Shown piece by piece: positions 13,496 through 55,939 of a DNA stretch of 64,000 nucleotides (its first letter is position 1; each line of letters starts with the position of its first letter). The notes under the pieces are model-generated. The model worked only from the letters and a program-made list of their open reading frames with translations, made no database searches and was not told where the DNA came from. Made by a program: the position numbers and the translations under genes. This DNA comes from Oscillospiraceae bacterium (GTDB lineage Bacteria; Bacillota; Clostridia; Saccharofermentanales; Saccharofermentanaceae): the NCBI GenBank assembly GCA_902787975.1, contig CADAIP010000006.1:11193-75192 (forward strand), read 5' to 3'.

Positions 13496-14593
13496 TTACG
13501 GTGAACCGGCAGCTGACAGCGAATTGTTTTGTGATCTCAGTTGCCGCCTTATTCTGTTTATGTGCCGTTCAAAAGATCCGTTGTTTATAAGTTCAGTCAG
13601 GACGAGCTGCTCGAATGTCGGAACCGTGCATGAATAAAATCCGAGTTTCTTATTAAATGTCTCTATCAGGTGTTCAGGAAGGACCATATAGCCCACACGG
13701 AGTGCCGGAGAAATGGTCTTTGAGAAAGTATTCAGATATATAACATTGTCTTTTGTGGCCATCGAAAAAAGCGTCTCAACGGGTTTGCCCAAAACGGAAA
13801 ATTCAGATTCAAAATCGTCTTCAACAATTATCCTGTCAGATGAGTCAGCCCATCTTATGTATTCGTGACGTTTGGATGCGGAAGCTGATATTCCCGTGGG
13901 GAAACTTCTGAACGGTGAAATGTGCAGGACCTTTGCTTTTGTTTTGTTAAGTGCCTTGCTCTCGATTCCGTCATTTCCGAGCGCGAGCAATTCGTATTTA
14001 ACATTCGCGTTCTTATATACTTTTCTGATCTTTTCGTAAGAAGGATCTTCCAATGCGAATAACCTGTCATCTCCTATAAGACCTGCGATGAGATTATAAA
14101 GGTATTCAGCACCTGATCCGATCACGATTGCCGAAGGATCTATATGAATATCTTTGTTTCGTGCAAGGTATTTTGCAATGGCTTCACGGAATTCCAAAAG
14201 ACCTGCATTAGGTGATTTTAAAAGTATCTCATCCTGACGGTTGGTAAGGATGTTTCTCATTGTTTTAGATAAGACGGATACAGGGAAGACCAGACGGTCT
14301 GAGTTGCTGCCCAATGAAGTATTAGTTGATTGCATTTCATCCGGGAAAGATGAGAAACCGTCTGTGACGCGGAAGTCAACAAAGTAGCCGCTCTTCTCGA
14401 CGCTTCTGATATATCCTTCGTCACGGAGTAGATCGTAAGCGTGTGCTACTGATATAACGCTTACGCCTGATTCAGATGCAAGAGTCCTTTTGGACGGGAT
14501 CTTTGTATTGTAAGGATACACTCCGTCCACGATGTTTTTCTTGATCTGCTTATACAATTTCATGTATGCGGAGTCGTCTGTTTTGTTCTTCAT
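13496..14593 (-). CDS. MocR/GabR/PdxR family regulator (GntR HTH plus aminotransferase-like domain)
   Basis: 'KIPSKRTLA..SGVSVISVAHAYDLLRDEGYI', 'IVEDDFESEF', 'TFSKTISPALRVGY'. Confidence 0.9.
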   Translation of the reverse strand: MKNKTDDSAYMKLYKQIKKNIVDGVYPYNTKIPSKRTLASESGVSVISVAHAYDLLRDEGYIRSVEKSGYFVDFRVTDGFSSFPDEMQSTNTSLGSNSDRLVFPVSVLSKTMRNILTNRQDEILLKSPNAGLLEFREAIAKYLARNKDIHIDPSAIVIGSGAEYLYNLIAGLIGDDRLFALEDPSYEKIRKVYKNANVKYELLALGNDGIESKALNKTKAKVLHISPFRSFPTGISASASKRHEYIRWADSSDRIIVEDDFESEFSVLGKPVETLFSMATKDNVIYLNTFSKTISPALRVGYMVLPEHLIETFNKKLGFYSCTVPTFEQLVLTELINNGSFERHINRIRRQLRSQNNSLSAAGSP

Positions 14594-14687
14594 CTGGTTA
14601 TATAAAAAACTCCTGTTCTGGATATTTAATATATTCAGATAAGTTGTACCATAGTGTCATTCAGAAAACAACTTCTTCAGGAGATAT

Positions 14688-15125
14688 GGTACACAGCTTC
14701 ACATCCCGACGGCAATAGGACACATTAACCTCGGCGATCTGGTCATATTGGTAGCGGCATATATCCTTGGTCCCTTCTCGGCGATAGCAGGTGCAATCGG
14801 TGCAACGCTCGCAGATCTTACTGCCGGTTATCCGCAATACGCAATACCTACTTTTTTGATCAAAGGAATTATGGGACTTGTTGCAGGACTTCTTATGAAA
14901 CGCAACAGCGAAAACAAAGTTCCGTTAGTGCGCAAACTCATAGCTGCAGTAGTTGCCGAACTGATAATGGTAGCAGGATATTTCGGATTTGAATCTTTGC
15001 CTTTCATGTATGGCGTAGAAGCAGCATTAGGTTCAGTAGTACCTAATCTTATCCAGGCAGCTGCAGCGATAATCGGTGCCATTCCTCTTACCTATGTAAA
15101 GCTGTTCGACAGGATACGCGTATAA
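14688..15125 (+). pseudogene. 5'-truncated ECF transporter S component
   Basis: Frame from 14688 reads GTQLHIPTAIGHINLGDLVIL..., near-collinear with the intact paralog at 54135, but lacks the first ~26 aa; the RBS-ATG at 14686 is out of frame and stops after 10 codons. Confidence 0.7.
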
Positions 15126-41523: not shown

Positions 41524-41559
41524 AAACCTATTGACTTAGTGGGTTAATGGAATTAATAT
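41524..41559 (+). promoter_or_regulatory. Rrf2-like sulfur box over the iscS promoter
   Basis: AAACCTA-TTGACTTAG-TGGGTTA; TTGACT-N17-TAATAT. Confidence 0.75.
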
Positions 41560-43189: not shown

Positions 43190-43224
43190 TAACCTATTGA
43201 CACAGTAGGTTTATGTGGCATAAT
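43190..43224 (+). promoter_or_regulatory. Rrf2-like sulfur box over a sigmaA promoter
   Basis: TAACCTA-TTGACACAG-TAGGTTT; TTGACA-N16-(TGn)CATAAT. Confidence 0.8.
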
Positions 43225-43259: not shown

Positions 43260-43358
43260 ATGTTTAGGATCATGTGTTGTCGAATGCATTATACAAGGGC
43301 TGAATCGGCCATGGCGTTTGACTGCACGAATATGCGCCTTGTCGATGTACGATGTTGA
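43260..43358 (+). CDS. Cys/Met-rich leader peptide 1 (32 aa)
   Basis: AAGGAGG RBS; MFRIMCCRMHYTRAESAMAFDCTNMRLVDVRC*. Confidence 0.8.
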   Translation: MFRIMCCRMHYTRAESAMAFDCTNMRLVDVRC

Positions 43359-47282: not shown

Positions 47283-48407
47283 ATGGATAAATCAAAAGTG
47301 TATTTTACTGATTTTCGTACGGGTCTTGGTACGCCTCTTACTGCCAAGCTTCAAAAGCTCATAAAGCTTGCGGGAATCCAGTCTATCGATATGGACAACA
47401 AGTTTGTTGCCATAAAAATGCATTTCGGCGAACTCGGAAATCTCGCTTATTTAAGGCCCAATTATGCCAAGGCTGTTGCCGATGTCGTTAAAGAATTGGG
47501 CGGTATGCCTTTCCTTACCGACTGCAACACGCTTTATCCCGGAAGCCGTAAGCATGCGCTCGAGCACATGGACTGCGCAAACATCAACGGTTTTAACACG
47601 GTTACTACCGGATGCCAGATAATCATCGCTGACGGACTTAGAGGAACTGACGACATAATCGTTCCCGTTCCCAATGGTGAGTACTGCAAGGAAGCTTACA
47701 TCGGCCGTGCCGTAATGGATGCCGATATCTTTATCTCCCTTACGCATTTCAAAGGACATGAACAGGCCGGATTCGGCGGCTGTATAAAGAACATCGGCAT
47801 GGGATGCGGTTCCCGTGCGGGTAAGATGCAGCAGCACCAGAGCGGTCATCCGCATGTCATTACGGAGCGCTGCAGAGGATGCAAGCGGTGTTCCAAGGAA
47901 TGCGGTTCCGATGCGTTCATCTACGAGAATGGCAAAGCAAGGATAGATCCCGCTAAGTGCAAAGGCTGCGGCCGCTGCATCGGAGCATGCTCTTTCGATG
48001 CGATCGAAAACGATAACTGGGATGCAGCATCGATGCTCGGTAGAAAGATGGCAGAATATACTGCTGCGGTTATCAGCGGCAGACCAAGTTTCCACATCAG
48101 CCTCATCACTGACGTATCACCGAACTGTGACTGTCACGGAGAAAACGATGCACCCATCCTTCCAGACATCGGTATGCTCGCTTCTTTTGATCCTGTCGCT
48201 CTTGACCAGGCATGCGTTGATCTTTGCCAGAAGGCTGAGCCTGTAAGCAACAGCCAGCTCGGAGACAATATGAGAAGCGCACACTTCCACGACCATGGGG
48301 ATGTATGGCATAACAGCAATCCTAATGTCTCATGGGCAGAAACACTTGAGCATGGAGAGAAGATCGGAATAGGAACTCGTGATTACGAGCTCGTGATCAT
48401 GAAGTAA
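47283..48407 (+). CDS. DUF362 domain Fe-S protein with two [4Fe-4S] motifs
   Basis: 'KMHFGE', 'TDCNTLY', 'CRGCKRC', 'CKGCGRCIGAC', 'SPNCDC'. Confidence 0.85.
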   Translation: MDKSKVYFTDFRTGLGTPLTAKLQKLIKLAGIQSIDMDNKFVAIKMHFGELGNLAYLRPNYAKAVADVVKELGGMPFLTDCNTLYPGSRKHALEHMDCANINGFNTVTTGCQIIIADGLRGTDDIIVPVPNGEYCKEAYIGRAVMDADIFISLTHFKGHEQAGFGGCIKNIGMGCGSRAGKMQQHQSGHPHVITERCRGCKRCSKECGSDAFIYENGKARIDPAKCKGCGRCIGACSFDAIENDNWDAASMLGRKMAEYTAAVISGRPSFHISLITDVSPNCDCHGENDAPILPDIGMLASFDPVALDQACVDLCQKAEPVSNSQLGDNMRSAHFHDHGDVWHNSNPNVSWAETLEHGEKIGIGTRDYELVIMK

Positions 48408-49309
48408 TGAGAAAACCTGCAATATTCAAAATCCTGATATTTATCGTTGCAACGGCCATATTACTGGCTTCGTGCACGTCAAAGCCTGTTAATTCCAAGC
48501 CGAACAGGACAGCGGTCGAGAACGAGAGACAGCTGATCAAAGAAAGACTGATCAAGATCGAAGATGAATATCCGCGATTTGAATATTCAATATCCATGCC
48601 AATAGTCGAGAAGACTGAAGGCCGTTCCAGGGATGTGGTTTTTTACCGCGATGGCGGAGCGATCTACGGCAGGCTTACCGTGCCCAAAGGTCAGGGTCCG
48701 TTTAAGACGATAATAATCGTGAACGGCCTTTATGCTCCGCTCGGAAGATATTCTGATAAAGCCGAACATTATGCCGAGCACGGATATGCTGTAATCGAAT
48801 TTCTCTGTCAGAATGGTACTCCTCCGGAAAGCGGCGATGATCCTGAGTGGCTCGGAAATTTTATTGTCGATCAGATCCTGGATCTTTATGCGGTAATCGA
48901 TTCATGCTCGTATTTCGCAGAAGTCGATACTTCAAACCTTTATCTATACGGACACAGCATGGGCGGCATGGTCGCATCTTATGCCGGAACGTTCAGACAG
49001 GATGATATCAAAGGCATGATACTTGTCGATCCGAGTTTTTATGCTCCCGACATCATGTGGTTCGAGAATGACATAGAACTGATCACGACTGATATCTATC
49101 CGCTCTTTAAGACCTGCAAGATCCCTGTGGCCATTTTTACGGGAACTGAAGGAAGCTTCGGAGAAGATCCCGAATTCTTCAAGCCTGCATTGGCAGCTTT
49201 CCCGAATGTGGAGTTCATCGTTATCGAAGGGGCCACACATACGATGGACGGAGTGGAAGGCGAACATCTTGTCGATCTCTCTGTTGAATTAATCGCTTCC
49301 TGGGGATAA
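48407..49309 (+). CDS. Alpha/beta hydrolase lipoprotein
   Basis: Lipobox 'LLASC'; 'GHSMGG'. Confidence 0.8.
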   Translation: MRKPAIFKILIFIVATAILLASCTSKPVNSKPNRTAVENERQLIKERLIKIEDEYPRFEYSISMPIVEKTEGRSRDVVFYRDGGAIYGRLTVPKGQGPFKTIIIVNGLYAPLGRYSDKAEHYAEHGYAVIEFLCQNGTPPESGDDPEWLGNFIVDQILDLYAVIDSCSYFAEVDTSNLYLYGHSMGGMVASYAGTFRQDDIKGMILVDPSFYAPDIMWFENDIELITTDIYPLFKTCKIPVAIFTGTEGSFGEDPEFFKPALAAFPNVEFIVIEGATHTMDGVEGEHLVDLSVELIASWG

Positions 49310-49339
49310 ACTCTTTCCAAACCCCGGAGGAGACTTCTG

Positions 49340-49852
49340 ATGATCATTCTGATTACAGGCGCATCACATACAGGAAAAACATTTCTCGCAAAAAAGTTTG
49401 TAGAGAAATATCACTACTCATGCCTGTCGATCGACCATCTGAAGATGGGGCTAATAAGGAGCGGATATACAGATCTTACTCCTTTGGATGATGACAAACT
49501 CACTGATTATCTCTGGCCTGTAGTAAGGGAGATGATCAAGACAGCGATCGAGAATAACCAGGACATGATCGTTGAAGGATGCTATGTGCCGGCTACCTGG
49601 CAAAAAGACTTTGACGAACAGTACCTTTTTTCGATAAGATTAATATGTCTGGCATTTACAGAAGAATACATTGAGAAGAATTTTGACAACATAATATCCA
49701 ACGCATCCGTTATTGAGAAAAGACTGTGTGACGATTTAACAAAAGAAGTTCTTATAAGGGACAACAGGCAATTTCTTGAAGGTTTCGGTCAGCAGGTGAC
49801 TCTGATCGAAGACAGTTACGAACAGACAGTAGATTCGCTTTTGCAAGATTGA
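49340..49852 (+). CDS. P-loop kinase-like protein
   Basis: 'ITGASHTGKT', 'SIDHLKMGLIRSG', 'IVEG'. Confidence 0.75.
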   Translation: MIILITGASHTGKTFLAKKFVEKYHYSCLSIDHLKMGLIRSGYTDLTPLDDDKLTDYLWPVVREMIKTAIENNQDMIVEGCYVPATWQKDFDEQYLFSIRLICLAFTEEYIEKNFDNIISNASVIEKRLCDDLTKEVLIRDNRQFLEGFGQQVTLIEDSYEQTVDSLLQD

Positions 49853-49865
49853 CGGGGAAAAGATT

Positions 49866-50678
49866 ATGGAAAGAATAGACGAAGTATATGAGTTCTATAA
49901 TGGCGGTGCGGAGATAGGACGTCTTGAACGCGGACTTGGTGTTGTTGAATTCTGGAGAAGCAAAGAGATCATCAGCAGATACCTTAACGGTAAGCTGAAG
50001 ATATACGATGTCGGCGGCGGCATCGGAATGTATGCTGACTGGCTCGCATCTAAGGGCCATAAAGTAACCTTGATCGAACTCGCTCCCACGGCTGTTGAAT
50101 ACGCAAAGGAACACATGACGACACCTTATGAAGCTGAGGTCGGTGATGCGCGCAAACTCGATAAACCCGATAACAGCGCAGACATGGTTCTCCTCATGGG
50201 CCCTTTGTATCACCTGATGAATAAAGAAGACAGGCTGCTTGCATTGTCGGAAGCCCACCGTGTCCTTAAGCCGGGCGGCATTCTTATCGCGGCAGGCATC
50301 TCGAAGTTTAGCAGCGCAACTTGGGCACTGACGGTTTACGGTACTGCAAATGAGTTCCTCGATGATGACATCTACATGGACATGATAATCCGTGAGATGA
50401 AAAAAGGTGAGCACATAAGACCGAGGGAATATCCGTTCTTTATTTCGAATGCATATTTCCATACGATCGACAGATTGAGAAACGAAGTTTCCGAAGCTAA
50501 GTTTAAGATTATCGAGAGTGCGGCTGTTGAAGGATGCGCATGGATCACTCCTGATATCGTTGATAAGTGGAGTGACGACAGAAAGCGCGAACGGCTCCTT
50601 CGCATAATCAGGACAACTGAACATGAAGAAACTCTGATGGGCATAAGCCCTCACTTCTTAGTCACTGCATTAAAATAA
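49866..50678 (+). CDS. Class I SAM-dependent methyltransferase
   Basis: 'IYDVGGGIG', 'GDARKL', 'LLMGPLYHL', 'LKPGG'. Confidence 0.9.
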   Translation: MERIDEVYEFYNGGAEIGRLERGLGVVEFWRSKEIISRYLNGKLKIYDVGGGIGMYADWLASKGHKVTLIELAPTAVEYAKEHMTTPYEAEVGDARKLDKPDNSADMVLLMGPLYHLMNKEDRLLALSEAHRVLKPGGILIAAGISKFSSATWALTVYGTANEFLDDDIYMDMIIREMKKGEHIRPREYPFFISNAYFHTIDRLRNEVSEAKFKIIESAAVEGCAWITPDIVDKWSDDRKRERLLRIIRTTEHEETLMGISPHFLVTALK

Positions 50679-50732
50679 CAAAAGGTGTTTTGTATAATTA
50701 GGTAAGCATATTCTTCAAAAGAGGTTTTATCC

Positions 50733-51974
50733 ATGAAGATCACTACCGGAGATACAATGCACGTTTACGGTGCTATCGGCGCCGGGGTTGATTATGCCGT
50801 CCGTTTCAAGGTCAGACTTAAAGATAAGATCGATCCTGATGCATTGAAATCTTCTGTGTCTTCTGCGTCTTTAAGATTCCCGTATTTCATGGGACGTCTG
50901 GTCTCTACGGCCGAGTCTTTTGAATATGCAGATAACGATCTTCCTATTGCAGTCATAAACAGTGAAGCAAGAGTCATTCTTAATTCTGCCATGACCAATT
51001 ATCACGTGTGGGCGGTATCTTTTCTGGATGACTTCATTTATCTCGATTTCTTCCACGGAATAACTGACGGCACGGGCATGTACAGAGTGCTCGCTACGAT
51101 CCTTTATCATTACTGCAAAAACGTTTATGGAATAGATCTGATTCCTGAACTGGAAGCATCTGATATTGAAGCAGAGATGGCAGATCCGCAGGATACCATC
51201 GAAGAAGTCCCCGCACCGGAAACGTCTTACACTCCTGCATTTACTTTGGAGACAGACGGCGGACTTACGAAGTCGTCACCTGTCATTTGGGACGTTAAGA
51301 TCCCTGAAGACGCATTCATTAAATTCGTGCGCGAAAACGATTCCACTCCGGGTACGATGGTCGAACTCCTGATGGGCAAAGCTATCAATTCGCTTTATCC
51401 TGACAGGTCAAAACCCATCATCAGTTCATATGTCATAAACGCAAGACCGATGGTCGGCGCTGAAGCTACTAATCATAACTGCCTCGGCATGTCCATCTTC
51501 GATTATTCTCCGCTCGTAAACTCCATGCCTCTTTCTACTCAGGGCACGGTTTACCGCGGCAAGACGTTCGTGCAGAGCAGGGAAGAACAGGTCGCAGCAG
51601 GTCTTGCGGTCAATGCTTCAACTGTTAAAGGAATAATGAATTCGACTCCTTCCCTCAAAGCTCGTAAAGATATCTTCACGGCGATGTTTAACGGCGGTGA
51701 AGGTTTCATAAGTTATCTTGTAAGTTATCCCGGCAAATGGAAATATCCGACGATCGGACAATACATGAAAGAGTTCTGGACACACCCTCCGTGCACTTTC
51801 AGTCTTATGGTTATCTTAGGCGCTGCCGGAGGCAATATATCGCTCTCGATCCAGCAGAGATTTTCCGGATCTTCCGTTGTTAATGCGTTCCTATCACTTC
51901 TTGAAGAAAACGGCATCCCGTATGAAGTTATATCTTCCGGAGCAAGTGATGTCGCCGGATTTGAATCACCCTGA
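50733..51974 (+). CDS. Standalone CoA-dependent acyltransferase/condensation-fold protein
   Basis: 'FFHGITDG' (HxxxDG motif). Confidence 0.55.
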   Translation: MKITTGDTMHVYGAIGAGVDYAVRFKVRLKDKIDPDALKSSVSSASLRFPYFMGRLVSTAESFEYADNDLPIAVINSEARVILNSAMTNYHVWAVSFLDDFIYLDFFHGITDGTGMYRVLATILYHYCKNVYGIDLIPELEASDIEAEMADPQDTIEEVPAPETSYTPAFTLETDGGLTKSSPVIWDVKIPEDAFIKFVRENDSTPGTMVELLMGKAINSLYPDRSKPIISSYVINARPMVGAEATNHNCLGMSIFDYSPLVNSMPLSTQGTVYRGKTFVQSREEQVAAGLAVNASTVKGIMNSTPSLKARKDIFTAMFNGGEGFISYLVSYPGKWKYPTIGQYMKEFWTHPPCTFSLMVILGAAGGNISLSIQQRFSGSSVVNAFLSLLEENGIPYEVISSGASDVAGFESP

Positions 51975-52050
51975 TTTTTCGGATCCTTATGTTATAATCC
52001 TCTAATATCGGAAGCGAAGTTATTTCTATTTGAGGATAAAGGAATTTATT

Positions 52051-52545
52051 ATGAACATTAATGACATGACAGTTCCCTGTTGTGATGGTTTTATCAACAT
52101 CAGGGTAGGGGCGATCATCCTGAAAAACGGAAAATTCCTGATGGTGGGAAACACTGGCGTTGACTATCTTTATTCCGTAGGCGGAAGGATACATTTCGGT
52201 GAGACTGCCGAAGAAGCAGTTATCCGTGAAGTTTTCGAAGAGACCGGAATAAAGATGGAAGTAGACAGGCTCGGGTTTATCCACGAGAATTATTTCTACG
52301 GAGATACCCAAAGAAACATGGGCAAACTTGTTTACGAAGTGTCGTATTTCTTCTACATGAAAGTGCCTGAAGATTTTGAGCCCGTATCAAGTGACTTTAA
52401 TGAAGACGGATGCAAAGAACATCTCGTTTGGGCAAGCGTTGATGATGAGATCACAATGTATCCGGATTTCTACAGAAGCGAGTTATCCCACCCTTCTGAA
52501 GGGGTAAAATTTTTTGTGACTGATGAGAGAAAAAAGGGGAAATAA
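52051..52545 (+). CDS. NUDIX hydrolase
   Basis: 'GGRIHFGETAEEAVIREVFEETG'. Confidence 0.92.
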   Translation: MNINDMTVPCCDGFINIRVGAIILKNGKFLMVGNTGVDYLYSVGGRIHFGETAEEAVIREVFEETGIKMEVDRLGFIHENYFYGDTQRNMGKLVYEVSYFFYMKVPEDFEPVSSDFNEDGCKEHLVWASVDDEITMYPDFYRSELSHPSEGVKFFVTDERKKGK

Positions 52546-52547
52546 GA

Positions 52548-53333
52548 ATGGAAAAACTTGAGTTATTTGTTAAGCAGCTTACACCTGATATTTATCTAAT
52601 GGATGAAGGCCACATGGCTACGGGATATTTTGTTGTGGGCGAAGATAAGGTCTGCGTTATCGATACGATGAACGGTTTCAACGACCTCAAAAAAGTCGTA
52701 AGGGAAGTTACTGACAAGCCTATCGTTGTAGTAAATACACACGGTCATCCGGATCACATTTTCGGCAATGTATATTTTGATGAAGCGCTCCTCGACCCTA
52801 AGGATCTTGAGCTTGCGGAGTCATTCGTTGACGAACCTGAATTCAAGGAAGCATGTGATAAATACGGTTTTAAGATGCCTCCGTTTAAGTCGATCAATGA
52901 AGGTGATGTTATTGATCTCGGTGGTAAGACTTTGGAAGTCTTTGAGATTCCCGGACATACTCCGGGAAGCATCGTTCTGCTTCTCAGGGAAGACAGAATC
53001 CTGTTCACGGGTGATGCTATAAATCACCATCTCTGGATGCAGCTTGACGGTTGCTCAACGCTTAATGAATATGTGAAAGCGTTGGACAATATTATGTTCC
53101 TTGAAGATCGTGCTGACCGCATTCTTCACGGTCATGCACGCGACTTCGATGACATCTCTCTTATGAGATGCATGCGCAACGGAATCAAGGAAATATGCGA
53201 CGGCAAAACATCTGAAGACAAACCTTATGAATGGTGGGGCGGTGTCGGCAAACAGCATTCATTTAGTCTTTTGGAAGGTAAGACATACAGCCAGCCTGAC
53301 AGCGTTGTGTGCTATGTTCCTTCGAATATATAA
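52548..53333 (+). CDS. MBL-fold metallo-hydrolase
   Basis: 'THGHPDH', 'PGHT', 'TGDA', 'HGH'. Confidence 0.92.
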   Translation: MEKLELFVKQLTPDIYLMDEGHMATGYFVVGEDKVCVIDTMNGFNDLKKVVREVTDKPIVVVNTHGHPDHIFGNVYFDEALLDPKDLELAESFVDEPEFKEACDKYGFKMPPFKSINEGDVIDLGGKTLEVFEIPGHTPGSIVLLLREDRILFTGDAINHHLWMQLDGCSTLNEYVKALDNIMFLEDRADRILHGHARDFDDISLMRCMRNGIKEICDGKTSEDKPYEWWGGVGKQHSFSLLEGKTYSQPDSVVCYVPSNI

Positions 53334-53356
53334 TTTGAAATTGTGAGGTTACAAGA

Positions 53357-53902
53357 ATGATTTTATCTGACAGAACAATACTTAAGATGCTCGAAGAAAA
53401 AACACTTACTATCGAGCCTGTTACAAAAGAACAGATACAGCCTGCAAGTGTCGATATCAGATTAGGCCGCACTTTCAGTGTCGTTGACGATACACCTTCA
53501 AGCGTTATCACTCTCGAAAATGAGATCAAATATAAGACCATCACGACTGATACTTATCTCATCATGCCGGGTCAGTTTGTTCTTGCTACCACGATGGAAT
53601 ATTTCGAGCTTCCCGATAACCTCACCGCATTTGTGGAAGGCAGAAGTTCGCTCGGCAGAATGGGTCTTTTCATCCAGAATGCCGGATGGGTAGATCCCGG
53701 ATTTAAAGGTGAGATAACACTTGAACTTTATAACGCAAACAGATGCGCTATTGAACTTAAGGCGGGAAGAAGAGTAGGCCAGCTCGTTTTCGCTGAGATG
53801 GATGATCATGCTCTTAATCCTTATGACGGAAAGTACCAGGGCCAGAAGGGCGCTACGGGCTCTCGCGTCTTTAAAGATGCCGAAAACCCATTGACAAAAT
53901 AG
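53357..53902 (+). CDS. dcd: dCTP deaminase
   Basis: '[11 protein letters not shown]', '[10 protein letters not shown]', '[14 protein letters not shown]', 'YQGQ'. Confidence 0.95.
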
Positions 53903-53919
53903 GGAAATGATGTTAACTT
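53884..53919 (+). promoter_or_regulatory. Rrf2-like sulfur box and sigmaA promoter embedded in the dcd 3' end
   Basis: AAACCCA-TTGACAAAA-TAGGGAA; TTGACA-N17-(TGn)TAACTT. Confidence 0.6.
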
Positions 53920-53949
53920 TATCGCAATCATATTGAAGGAGGAAAGACA

Positions 53950-54030
53950 ATGAAACGCATTACGGCCACTATGATCTGTATGTGCTGTACTGAAGTCGTC
54001 CTCCCGCATATGACCGGAGTGATCTGTTAA
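53950..54030 (+). CDS. Cys/Met-rich leader peptide 2 (26 aa)
   Basis: AAGGAGG RBS; MKRITATMICMCCTEVVLPHMTGVIC*. Confidence 0.78.
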   Translation: MKRITATMICMCCTEVVLPHMTGVIC

Positions 54031-54069
54031 ACGCATGATTAAGATCACAAACTGAATAAAGGTTACTGT

Positions 54070-54103
54070 ACGGGAGTTCTGATGAATTCCCGTTATTGTT
54101 TTT
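54070..54103 (+). terminator. Attenuator terminator of leader 2
   Basis: ACGGGAGTTC-tgat-GAATTCCCGT-TATTGTTTTT. Confidence 0.75.
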
Positions 54104-54134
54104 GAAAAATATAGAATTAAAGGAGAATAAAAAC

Positions 54135-54698
54135 ATGAGCAGTAAAGACAATCATAAGAACAATTTGAAGAAGATAGCATACGCAGGTGTGCTTGCCGCA
54201 TTGGTATTCGTAGGTACCGAACTTCACATTCCGACAGCAATCGGACACATCAATTTAGGTGACCTCGTAATACTTGTAAGTTCGTATATCTTAGGACCAT
54301 TCGCATTCGTTCCCGCAGCTATCGGATCGACGCTTGCAGATCTTCTTGCAGGTTATCCCCAGTACGCAGTAGCAACATTCCTGATCAAGGGTATCATGGG
54401 ACTCGTTGCAGGACTTTTGCTTAAGAGAAACAGGGAAGGCAAGACTTCATTTTTCAGAAAGCTCTCCGTCTCTTTAGTTGCAGAGCTCATCATGATCGCA
54501 GGTTACTTCGCATTTGAATCACTGCCGTTTATGTATGGTGTTGAAGCAGCATTGGGCTCTGTAATCCCTAATGGTATCCAGGCAAGTGCTGCAATCGTAG
54601 GAGCAGTTCCGCTTATGTATGTGAAGCTTTTCGACAAATACCAGCTCTCGCAGAATAGCGAAATTCATAAGAATAAAGAAAAAACAGCAGTATCTTAA
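54135..54698 (+). CDS. ECF transporter S component (intact)
   Basis: 'LAALVFVGTELHIPTAIGHINLGD', 'AIGSTLADLLAGYPQY', 'IKGIMG'; AGGAG RBS. Confidence 0.88.
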   Translation: MSSKDNHKNNLKKIAYAGVLAALVFVGTELHIPTAIGHINLGDLVILVSSYILGPFAFVPAAIGSTLADLLAGYPQYAVATFLIKGIMGLVAGLLLKRNREGKTSFFRKLSVSLVAELIMIAGYFAFESLPFMYGVEAALGSVIPNGIQASAAIVGAVPLMYVKLFDKYQLSQNSEIHKNKEKTAVS

Positions 54699-54756
54699 TA
54701 ACCCTGAAACCCCTAAAAACAAAGCGTTTTCGAAGACATCGAAAAATATTTTCAAT

Positions 54757-54792
54757 AAACCTATTGACACGGTAGGTTTGTAGTAGTAAAGT
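54757..54792 (+). promoter_or_regulatory. Rrf2-like sulfur box (perfect arms) over a sigmaA promoter
   Basis: AAACCTA-TTGACACGG-TAGGTTT; TTGACA-N17-TAAAGT. Confidence 0.82.
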
Positions 54793-54823
54793 ATCGCCAT
54801 CACAACGAAAGGAGGAGTGAGAA

Positions 54824-54946
54824 ATGTATAGAACAGATAACAGAACAACAGTCATGATGTGTTGTCGAATGTTCAGCTCCCGGGTGCGCAATATGGCACA
54901 GGGCGCAGGATACAATTCCTCACGCCTTGAGATAGATCGATGTTAA
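54824..54946 (+). CDS. Cys/Met-rich leader peptide 3 (40 aa)
   Basis: AAAGGAGG RBS; MYRTDNRTTVMMCCRMFSSRVRNMAQGAGYNSSRLEIDRC*. Confidence 0.8.
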   Translation: MYRTDNRTTVMMCCRMFSSRVRNMAQGAGYNSSRLEIDRC

Positions 54947-54975
54947 AGCAGTAACTTGCATTTGAAGATATGCCA

Positions 54976-55012
54976 TGCGCCCGGGAGATAAATCTGACCC
55001 GGGCATTTTTAT
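54976..55012 (+). terminator. Attenuator terminator of leader 3
   Basis: GCCCGGG-N12-CCCGGGC-ATTTTTAT. Confidence 0.78.
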
Positions 55013-55072
55013 GCCAAAACAAAATCAATCTTAAAGCGAAAGAAAAAACACAAACTAAGGAGAACACACAAA

Positions 55073-55939
55073 ATGAAGAACATATTTAAGAAGGCAATCG
55101 CCGCAGGACTTTTACTCGCAATCACAGGCTCATTTGCAGCTTGCTCACAGGCTAAAGCAACAACAGTTAACGCAGGAACAGTAGGAAGTGACACACAGGT
55201 AACAGAGAATGTCGTTCTCACGGTAGGCGCAAACATCACACCTCACGCAGAGATCTTGGAAGTTGCAAAGCCGATCCTCGCAGAGCAGGGAATCACACTC
55301 GAGATCGTAAGACTCGAAGATTCCGTTACACCTAACACAGGCGTTATCGAAGGCTCACTTGACGCAAACTATTTCCAGCACGTTCCTTACCTCGAACAGT
55401 TCAATAAAGAAAACGGTTCAGATCTTGTTTCAGTTGGCGCAGTCCACTATGAACCCTTCGGCATCTATGCAGGCAGAGTAAAAGATCTTAAGGACCTCCA
55501 GGATGGCGCAGTGATCGCAGTTCCCAACAACGTAACAAACGAAGCAAGAGCACTTCTCCTCCTCGCACAGGAAGGCATCATCAAGCTCAAGGACGATGCA
55601 GGAATCAATGCAACAGTAGAAGACATCGTAGAGAATCCTCTTAACATCCAGTTCAAGGAACTCGCACCTGAGCAGCTCGTTGCAGCACTTCCTGACGTAG
55701 ATGTAGCAGTCATTAACGGTAACTACGCAATCGAGGGCGGTCTGCACGTAAGCGAGGCACTCGCAGTAGAGGCTAACGACGGTCTTGCAGCACAGACATA
55801 CGGAAACATCATTGCAACATCACCTGATAAGGCAAACGATCCTGCAGTTAAGGCTCTTGTTGAAGTTCTTCAGGGACCTGAAGTTGCAAAGTTCATCGAA
55901 GATACATATGACGGTGCAGTAGTACCTCTCTTCGGTTAA
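55073..55939 (+). CDS. metQ: Methionine ABC transporter substrate-binding lipoprotein (MetQ/NlpA)
   Basis: Lipobox 'FAAC'; 'TPHAEILE', 'DANYFQHVPYL', 'HYEPFGIY', 'VPNNVTNEARALLLL'. Confidence 0.92.
   Translation: MKNIFKKAIAAGLLLAITGSFAACSQAKATTVNAGTVGSDTQVTENVVLTVGANITPHAEILEVAKPILAEQGITLEIVRLEDSVTPNTGVIEGSLDANYFQHVPYLEQFNKENGSDLVSVGAVHYEPFGIYAGRVKDLKDLQDGAVIAVPNNVTNEARALLLLAQEGIIKLKDDAGINATVEDIVENPLNIQFKELAPEQLVAALPDVDVAVINGNYAIEGGLHVSEALAVEANDGLAAQTYGNIIATSPDKANDPAVKALVEVLQGPEVAKFIEDTYDGAVVPLFG

Follow-up and report, generated by a model that had tools for sequence, protein, structure and literature searches.

Classical leader-peptide attenuators include trpL, hisL and pheL, and in Clostridia T-boxes and S-boxes are the textbook controls. 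For transporters of the energy-coupling factor (ECF) type, the substrate of the S-component is usually guessed from the regulatory element. MtsT was reportedly described by Rodionov et al. in 2009 as an S-component regulated by an S-box, with a predicted role in the uptake of methionine precursors. Here we describe a locus in which a short open reading frame (ORF) with tandem Cys codons and a terminator, together named leader 2, precede a gene for an S-component of the HmpT/PdxU family. The locus lies in a window of 64,000 nucleotides (nt), the whole stretch of DNA that was analysed (from contig CADAIP010000006.1 of an Oscillospiraceae bacterium; positions refer to the window unless another contig or locus is named). 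The close relatives of the source genome are rumen Saccharofermentans metagenome-assembled genomes. Judged from sequence comparison, leader 2 is very probably a transcription attenuator of the ribosome-mediated leader-peptide type, which reports on the charging of tRNA-Cys.

Cysteine-specific leaders are known from Actinobacteria (cys leaders, PMC1262725), from mycobacteria (polycysteine short ORFs, bioRxiv 10.1101/834739) and from Rhodobacterales (the uORFC-8-2 motif upstream of cysS, PMC8632094). For Clostridia, we found no Cys-codon leader attenuator in the literature. The locus described here resembles the classical and the Cys-specific attenuators in having a short ORF, tandem codons of the sensed amino acid, mutually exclusive terminator and antiterminator structures, and downstream genes which serve that amino acid. 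It differs from the known Cys leaders in that it belongs to another phylum (Clostridia, Saccharofermentans), shows no sequence or Rfam relation to them, contains two adjacent Cys codons only, has a box embedded in its promoter, and gates a vitamin-type transporter instead of a biosynthetic gene. With MtsT it shares the principle of an ECF S-component under a sulfur-amino-acid signal, but there is no S-adenosylmethionine (SAM) riboswitch here and the protein is of the HmpT/PdxU family.

Leader 2 and its predicted alternative RNA structures

The predicted promoter of leader 2 (53886-53919, plus strand) contains the -35 element TTGACA (53891-53896), an extended -10 element TGtTAACTT (53911-53919) and the embedded box ACCCATTGACAAAATAGGG (53886-53904). 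The promoter region overlaps the 3' end of dcd, and its box is kept in the orthologs. Downstream of it, a strong Shine-Dalgarno (SD) sequence, AAGGAGGA (53936-53943, plus strand), is located 6 nt upstream of the ATG of an ORF with 26 codons (53950-54030, plus strand). The encoded peptide MKRITATMICMCCTEVVLPHMTGVIC contains four Cys and four Met residues, which confirms the short ORF that the earlier note on this DNA had reported. Homologous ORFs were found in 13 orthologous loci. Comparison of the resulting 14 leaders (that of the window included) singles out the tandem Cys12-Cys13 as the conserved sensor among the regulatory codons TGT-ATG-TGC-TGT (Cys10, Met11, Cys12 and Cys13; 53977-53988, plus strand): the tandem Cys codons are present in 13 of the 14 leaders and vary synonymously between TGT and TGC. 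Their distance to the downstream antiterminator arm is 9-12 nt across the aligned leaders. According to ribosome footprint geometry, this would correspond roughly to the front edge of a ribosome awaiting Cys-tRNA. In all three leaders of the window (see below) the ORF ends with a Cys codon followed by the stop codon. We considered this terminal Cys-stop as an essential part of leader 2 and rejected it, since it is not conserved in the leader-2 orthologs.

Downstream of the ORF we found an intrinsic terminator (54070-54104, plus strand) with the sequence ACGGGAGUUC-ugau-GAAUUCCCGU followed by UAUUGUUUUUG. Its GC-rich stem of 10 bp is built by the arms ACGGGAGTTC (54070-54079) and GAATTCCCGT (54084-54093), is followed by TATTGTTTTTG, and is 99.3% paired in the 14 sequences. 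The alternative, antiterminator pairing is predicted between the 5' arm CUCCCGCAUAUGACC (54001-54015, plus strand) and the 3' arm GGUUACUGUACGGGAG (54061-54076, plus strand), the latter overlapping the 5' arm of the terminator (as a duplex, CUCCCGcAUAUGACC with GGUUAcUGUaCGGGAG). Both structures had been named in the earlier note. The terminator arms are present, although the position implied for them was off by one base, and the proposed antiterminator of CTCCCG (54001-54006) and CGGGAG (54071-54076) is at its place, but the actual pairing is longer. The 5' arm encodes the conserved L-P-x-M-T motif of the leader peptide, this motif being nothing but the translated RNA arm. Inside the antiterminator loop lies a local hairpin, GUGAUCU/AGAUCAC (54019-54048, plus strand), which encloses the last Cys codon (54025-54027) and the stop codon (54028-54030). 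The relatives have a different hairpin at this position.

In the window, the calculated free energy of the antiterminator duplex is -17.4 kcal/mol versus -15.4 kcal/mol for the terminator hairpin. Across all 14 sequences the antiterminator duplex ranges from -16.5 to -22.7 kcal/mol, and in 12 of them it is at least as strong as the terminator hairpin (-13.5 to -20.0 kcal/mol). In the alignment of the 14 sequences, 91.8% pairing is seen for the antiterminator, compared to 34-47% when the partner is slid, and compensatory changes are found in four of its pairs, a value reached in 3 of 500 shuffles. The compensatory changes lend moderate support to the predicted antiterminator, the 14 sequences being closely related. 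RNAalifold, applied to the 14 leaders, returned the terminator and small local hairpins only, with neither the antiterminator nor a pairing of the SD region with the 5' arm; therefore, the named structures were scored individually. The minimum-energy fold of the free RNA pairs the SD region (53928-53944) with 53999-54013, and the SD of the leader ORF is also complementary to the CUCC core of the arm. This SD:arm pairing may act as an anti-antiterminator, a possibility which we retain. No Rfam family (T-box, SAM or other) was above the gathering score in the whole window, and thus no T-box or SAM riboswitch is present there. At E-values up to 10, the region 53850-55120 gave chance-level matches to caiA, L20-leader and CRISPR-DR only.

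Based on these structures, attenuation could proceed as follows. RNA polymerase would start at the sigma-70-type promoter with the box common to the locus, and a ribosome would translate the 26-codon leader. When Cys is scarce, the ribosome would stall with Cys12 or Cys13 (53983-53988) in its A site, its front edge ending just upstream of 54001. The free arm 54001-54015 could then pair with 54061-54076 and use up the 5' half of the terminator, and RNA polymerase would read into the S-component gene. With ample Cys the ribosome would reach the stop codon at 54028, where both the enclosed hairpin (54019-54048) and the arm in its 3' part would be covered or disturbed by it. The 54070-54093 hairpin would form and transcription would terminate. 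Without translation, the arm may pair with the SD region of the leader, which would also favour termination.

Several observations weigh against this model. A ribosome at the stop codon would hide no more than the final few bases of the 5' arm, and therefore the OFF state would rest on kinetics and on the SD:arm pairing. This pairing is inconsistent: it is strong in the subgroup of the window and uneven in the other orthologs (z from +0.3 to -4.7). It is in the OFF-state geometry that the attenuator model is weakest. Moreover, the U-tract of the terminator in the window is interrupted (UAUUGUUUUU), the second Cys codon of the tandem is lost in one of the 14 leaders, and the terminal Cys is not universal among the leaders.

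That the OFF state is not clean would also fit a different explanation, according to which the short ORF is not the sensor and its Cys codons are incidental; control would be exerted by a protein binding the promoter box or by another factor acting on terminator and antiterminator. In line with this, the conserved box overlaps the -35 element of all three leader promoters and also that of the leaderless nifS-nifU. However, all three leader types have tandem Cys codons, which are retained between species despite synonymous exchanges and stand at a fixed distance from the arm, and the leaders have strong SDs. In addition, box and leader can act jointly, and the box is no substitute for the leader. 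We consider control without a sensing ORF very improbable and regard leader-peptide attenuation as the mechanism which best describes leader 2.

Orthologs and the three cassettes of the window

Support for the attenuator comes from the genomic context of the S-component gene in related genomes. We compared 29 orthologs from other Saccharofermentans genomes with 72-96% identity. An own homologous leader was found in 13 of them (for example MNSITTTTMHTMCCFEVTLPRMTGIC and MKAFTTTTLMCMCSCQTTLPCMVCAMCRA, each ended by a stop codon), and each of these 13 also has the same box promoter and the CGGGAG terminator. Fifteen orthologs have no own leader and are located downstream of metI in the mccB-mccA-metN-metI locus, and the remaining one lies behind a transposase. 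The gap between metI and the leaderless ortholog is 20-50 nt in the three cases examined; other leaderless orthologs follow two extra genes, for a Glu-Cys-ligase-like and an EgtC-like protein. Leader 1 (see below) precedes mccB in the relatives wherever the upstream DNA was read. When the ortholog is apart from the mcc locus, after dcd, it always has an own leader, and two copies downstream of metI carry an own leader as well.

Thus, the orthologs standing apart have their own Cys leader and the leaderless ones are in a leader-controlled locus, which suggests that Cys-linked control of the S-component gene is maintained by selection. The earlier note had regarded orthologs consistently lacking the leader as speaking against cysteine control. 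The opposite was found, since the leaderless orthologs lie in the leader-1 locus, and the comparison bears out its proposal that the S-component is under a Cys-codon leader attenuator, be it an own leader or that of the locus.

In the genome of the window and in its closest relatives, metI and the S-component gene are separated by a 6.7-kb block (47283-53902) with genes for a DUF362 Fe-S protein, a hydrolase, a methyltransferase, a Nudix protein, a metallo-beta-lactamase-fold protein and dcd. This block is absent where the S-component gene directly follows metI. In some Saccharofermentans species, the gene for the Glu-Cys-ligase-like protein (GCS2, EgtA-like) and that for a class-II amidotransferase (GATase_4, EgtC-like) lie between metI and the S-component gene with gaps of about 30 nt (several loci, among them L034, 6990-8967, and L035).

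Leader 2 is one of three similar cassettes. The 2.72-Mb assembly was scanned for SD-led short ORFs with a CC motif or at least three Cys, which gave approximately 120 matches. The combination of a strong SD, an M-C-C motif, the box promoter and a stem-loop terminator was found in three cassettes genome-wide, all of them in the window and each upstream of Met/Cys genes. They consist of SD-led short ORFs with M-C-C followed by CCCGGG/CGGGAG-type terminators and start at 43260, 53950 and 54824. Leader 1 (43260-43358, plus strand) precedes mccB-mccA-metN-metI, and leader 3 (54824-54946, plus strand) precedes metQ, an Fe-ADH gene and an ORF of 184 amino acids (aa). The box ACCTATTGACA-N3-TAGG is confined in this genome to the promoters of leaders 1, 2 and 3, and a close variant was found upstream of nifS-nifU. 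In the longer form ACCTATTGACA-N3-TAGGT, it is located on the -35 elements of four promoters (41527-41545, 43192-43210, 53886-53904 and 54759-54777), the first being that of the leaderless nifS-nifU and the others those of the three cassettes. The box looks like the operator of a putative repressor, which would add a second layer of control to attenuation.

Across species, leaders 1 and 3 share the invariant nucleotides ATGTGTTGTCGAATG (43272-43286 and 54857-54871 in the window) and end with CGATGTTRA, corresponding to Arg-CGA, Cys and stop (43350-43358 and 54938-54946). Leader 2 has neither of these features. Stronger stalling or a role in RNA pairing are possible functions of the CGA codon beside the Cys codons. 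In 400 Clostridia genomes, the matches to the pattern ATGTGYTGYCGNATG outside the genus were mostly at chance level, with two clear leaders in other families of Clostridia. These MCCRM-type leaders (loci L137 and L143, genomes G312 and G373) are followed by GCCCGGGAG terminators; one of the peptides is MVRFETNKQNHTMCCRMLISRAYNLAGAFGCSCTRLIKK.

Family and probable substrate of the S-component

The gated gene (54135-54698, plus strand) encodes an ECF S-component of 187 aa. Its start is the ATG at 54135, which is preceded by the SD AAGGAG (54120-54125), and not the upstream TTG. The protein matches PF07155 with 102.5 bits (E 3e-29, cut-off 26.7). None of the NCBIfam models provided a specific name for the S-component; the best one was TIGR04002 with 53 bits at a cut-off of 120. 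The sole sequence match in the PDB is chain S of 4HZU, the Lactobacillus brevis HmpT/PdxU2 (E 6e-10). It is also the best fold match of the AlphaFold model (pLDDT 90.7), with 27% identity and TM-scores of 0.68/0.76; FolT, RibU, PanT, BioY and ThiT follow, and the top 25 PDB matches are all S-components. There is a single CbiQ/EcfT gene in the genome, with two ATP-binding cassette ATPase genes before it (contig C30, 17967-20382). These genes form one ecfA-ecfA'-ecfT module and therefore the protein is a solitary group-II S-component.

HmpT binds pyridoxamine, which was identified by mass spectrometry (PMC4860826), and PF07155/COG4720 is the family of PdxU as well as of PdxU2 (PMC9997740). The S-component studied here shares this family with HmpT/PdxU2, and three of the six pocket residues are identical (Y120, N140 and Q143 of HmpT, here Y124, N146 and Q149). 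One residue is changed conservatively (E41 to D43) and two differ (H84 to K85 and Q87 to M88). It is unlike HmpT/PdxU2 in the overall identity of only approximately 27-30%, in these two pocket residues and in its regulation. The six pocket residues present here are invariant or nearly so across all three paralog groups described below, the PdxR-linked one included.

The genus has up to three S-component paralogs. The Cys-regulated copies group in a single clade of the maximum-likelihood tree, with a support of 100/99. All nine members of its sister clade are divergently oriented to a gene for a MocR-type regulator, and the Cys-regulated S-component is 65-74% identical to this PdxR-linked paralog. 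In the window, the corresponding locus (13496-15125) contains pdxR (13496-14593, minus strand) divergent from a PdxU-type S-component gene (approximately 14686-15125, plus strand; 74% identity), and with 383 bits the PdxR copy exceeds the cut-off (320) of the NCBIfam equivalog model for PdxR. The protein studied here is thus HmpT/PdxU2-like and sister to a PdxR-linked paralog. In this assembly the PdxU-type paralog of the window is shortened at its N-terminus by about 25 codons; a frame opened by the ATG at 14686 meets a stop and resumes at a TTG at 14748. In the nearest relative it is intact, with 171 aa. We considered the Cys-regulated copy as a replacement for the PdxR-linked one and rejected this, since at least two genomes have both copies intact. 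The third and most widespread paralog directly follows a gene for a HAD-family phosphatase (contig C4, 115894-117074, minus strand), a pairing which recurs in several genomes of the genus.

Six more distant homologs, one of them from Roseburia faecis, are located beside the same regulator. In the neighbourhoods of 38 distant homologs, the meaningful recurring genes were those for PdxR (6 loci), a ThiD-type kinase (3 loci) and a HAD phosphatase (3 loci), and no sulfur genes were found there. Depending on the genome, a PdxR regulog of Clostridia comprises COG4720 PdxU or pdxST as its targets (PMC5320631, supplement). The situation in Saccharofermentans is similar to these regulons in that the sister paralog is divergent from a PdxR equivalog, and PdxS and PdxJ are missing from all genomes of the genus that were sampled (23 of 23 and 26 of 26, respectively). 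Elsewhere in the order, in other families, PdxS does occur. The lack of both argues that the genus cannot make pyridoxal 5'-phosphate (PLP) de novo and depends on uptake, and Saccharofermentans appears to be auxotrophic for vitamin B6.

MccA, MccB and NifS are PLP enzymes, and therefore co-induced uptake of the cofactor would be a coherent logic. The gated gene would be a genus-specific duplicate of the PdxR-linked, PdxU-type B6 S-component gene, and its product would work with the single ecfA-ecfA'-ecfT module. A B6-auxotrophic cell could in this way load the induced enzymes MccA and MccB (and the neighbouring NifS), when Cys is made from methionine. We see an about even chance that the S-component imports a B6 vitamer for MccA and MccB. 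Among the candidates, a B6 vitamer is the best supported because homology, paralog context and auxotrophy point to it. The earlier note had put Cys, Met or a sulfur precursor first and vitamin B6 second. The first choice was not supported, as the protein bears no sign of a sulfur ligand, and the second is the one favoured by our analysis.

The assignment to B6 also meets with contrary evidence. PdxU was never shown to bind B6, its specificity being predicted only (PMC9997740). The exchanges of H84 to K and of Q87 to M relative to HmpT are found throughout the family here. Unlike PdxU of the PdxR regulons, this copy does not adjoin pdxR and is part of a Cys-starvation regulon, and P80A and L147G distinguish it. 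It is found with a Cys leader or in the mcc locus and has no genomic or regulatory link to B6 (PdxR, pdxK or pdxST). The stem branch of its clade is longer (0.19), and two of the fixed differences to the PdxR-linked clade, P80A and L147G, are near pocket positions. Furthermore, B6 could already be supplied by the one or two further paralogs that many genomes possess, and in some species the position after the Glu-Cys-ligase-like and EgtC-like genes is a hint of thiol chemistry.

Some of these observations would also suit an S-component which, under the same attenuator, was neo-functionalised after duplication and imports a sulfur compound that yields or spares Cys. A derivative of Met or Cys, cystathionine, a gamma-glutamyl thiol or the adduct formed by cysteine and a B6 vitamer are possible candidates. 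The remaining genes of the regulon all serve methionine uptake or its conversion to cysteine; the long stem branch of its own and the changes fixed next to pocket positions, the occurrence as last gene after the Glu-Cys-ligase-like and EgtC-like genes in some species, and the paralogs which could cover the B6 supply all agree with this view. On the other hand, the identity to the PdxR-linked paralog is 65-74%, the family-invariant pocket residues are all unchanged, and no homolog in the tree outside the Cys-regulated clade has a sulfur-related context. The fixed differences between the two clades amount to eight positions only and are mostly conservative. We regard import of a sulfur compound as a possible but less probable alternative. 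Unlikely, but worth naming, is a combination of both ideas, in which a duplicate of a B6 S-component was captured by the Cys-starvation regulon and re-tuned by P80A and L147G for a sulfur-bearing ligand, a cysteine adduct or analogue of a B6 vitamer or another thiol compound being candidates.

The ThiD-type kinase genes mentioned above direct attention to another non-sulfur micronutrient under the same attenuator, such as the thiamine precursor hydroxymethylpyrimidine (HMP). Three distant homologs are near a ThiD-type HMP-P kinase gene (above the TIGR00097 cut-off) and a HAD phosphatase gene, and HmpT was first named for HMP, according to the original prediction (PMC4860826). However, the nearest paralogs are linked to PdxR and not to a thiamine pyrophosphate (TPP) riboswitch, no TPP riboswitch was found in the window, and it was pyridoxamine that was identified in HmpT (PMC4860826). 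In addition, HMP has no apparent link to cysteine metabolism. We consider such a substrate improbable, and uptake of a B6 vitamer is the reading which we prefer.

Meaning of a probably cysteine-gated vitamin-type transporter

The sensor mechanism of leader 2 is classical, and new are the target and the evolutionary pattern which keeps the sensor attached to it. A HmpT/PdxU-type S-component under amino-acid attenuation appears to be undescribed so far. The finding is important for several reasons. For the substrate, the rule based on the regulatory element and the homology point here in different directions. If the S-component takes up B6, the supply of a cofactor would be wired to amino-acid starvation, and vitamin uptake would rise together with the PLP enzymes by means of a leader peptide and not of a vitamin sensor. 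If it takes up a sulfur compound, this would be a new substrate class for the HmpT/PdxU family, and ECF transporters would have a role in the scavenging of sulfur amino acids in rumen Clostridia. With either substrate, the locus would be a compact and testable cysteine sensor for Clostridia. Last but not least, the orthologs represent a natural experiment: the gene is found in a leader-controlled locus or with its own leader, which suggests that the control itself is under selection.

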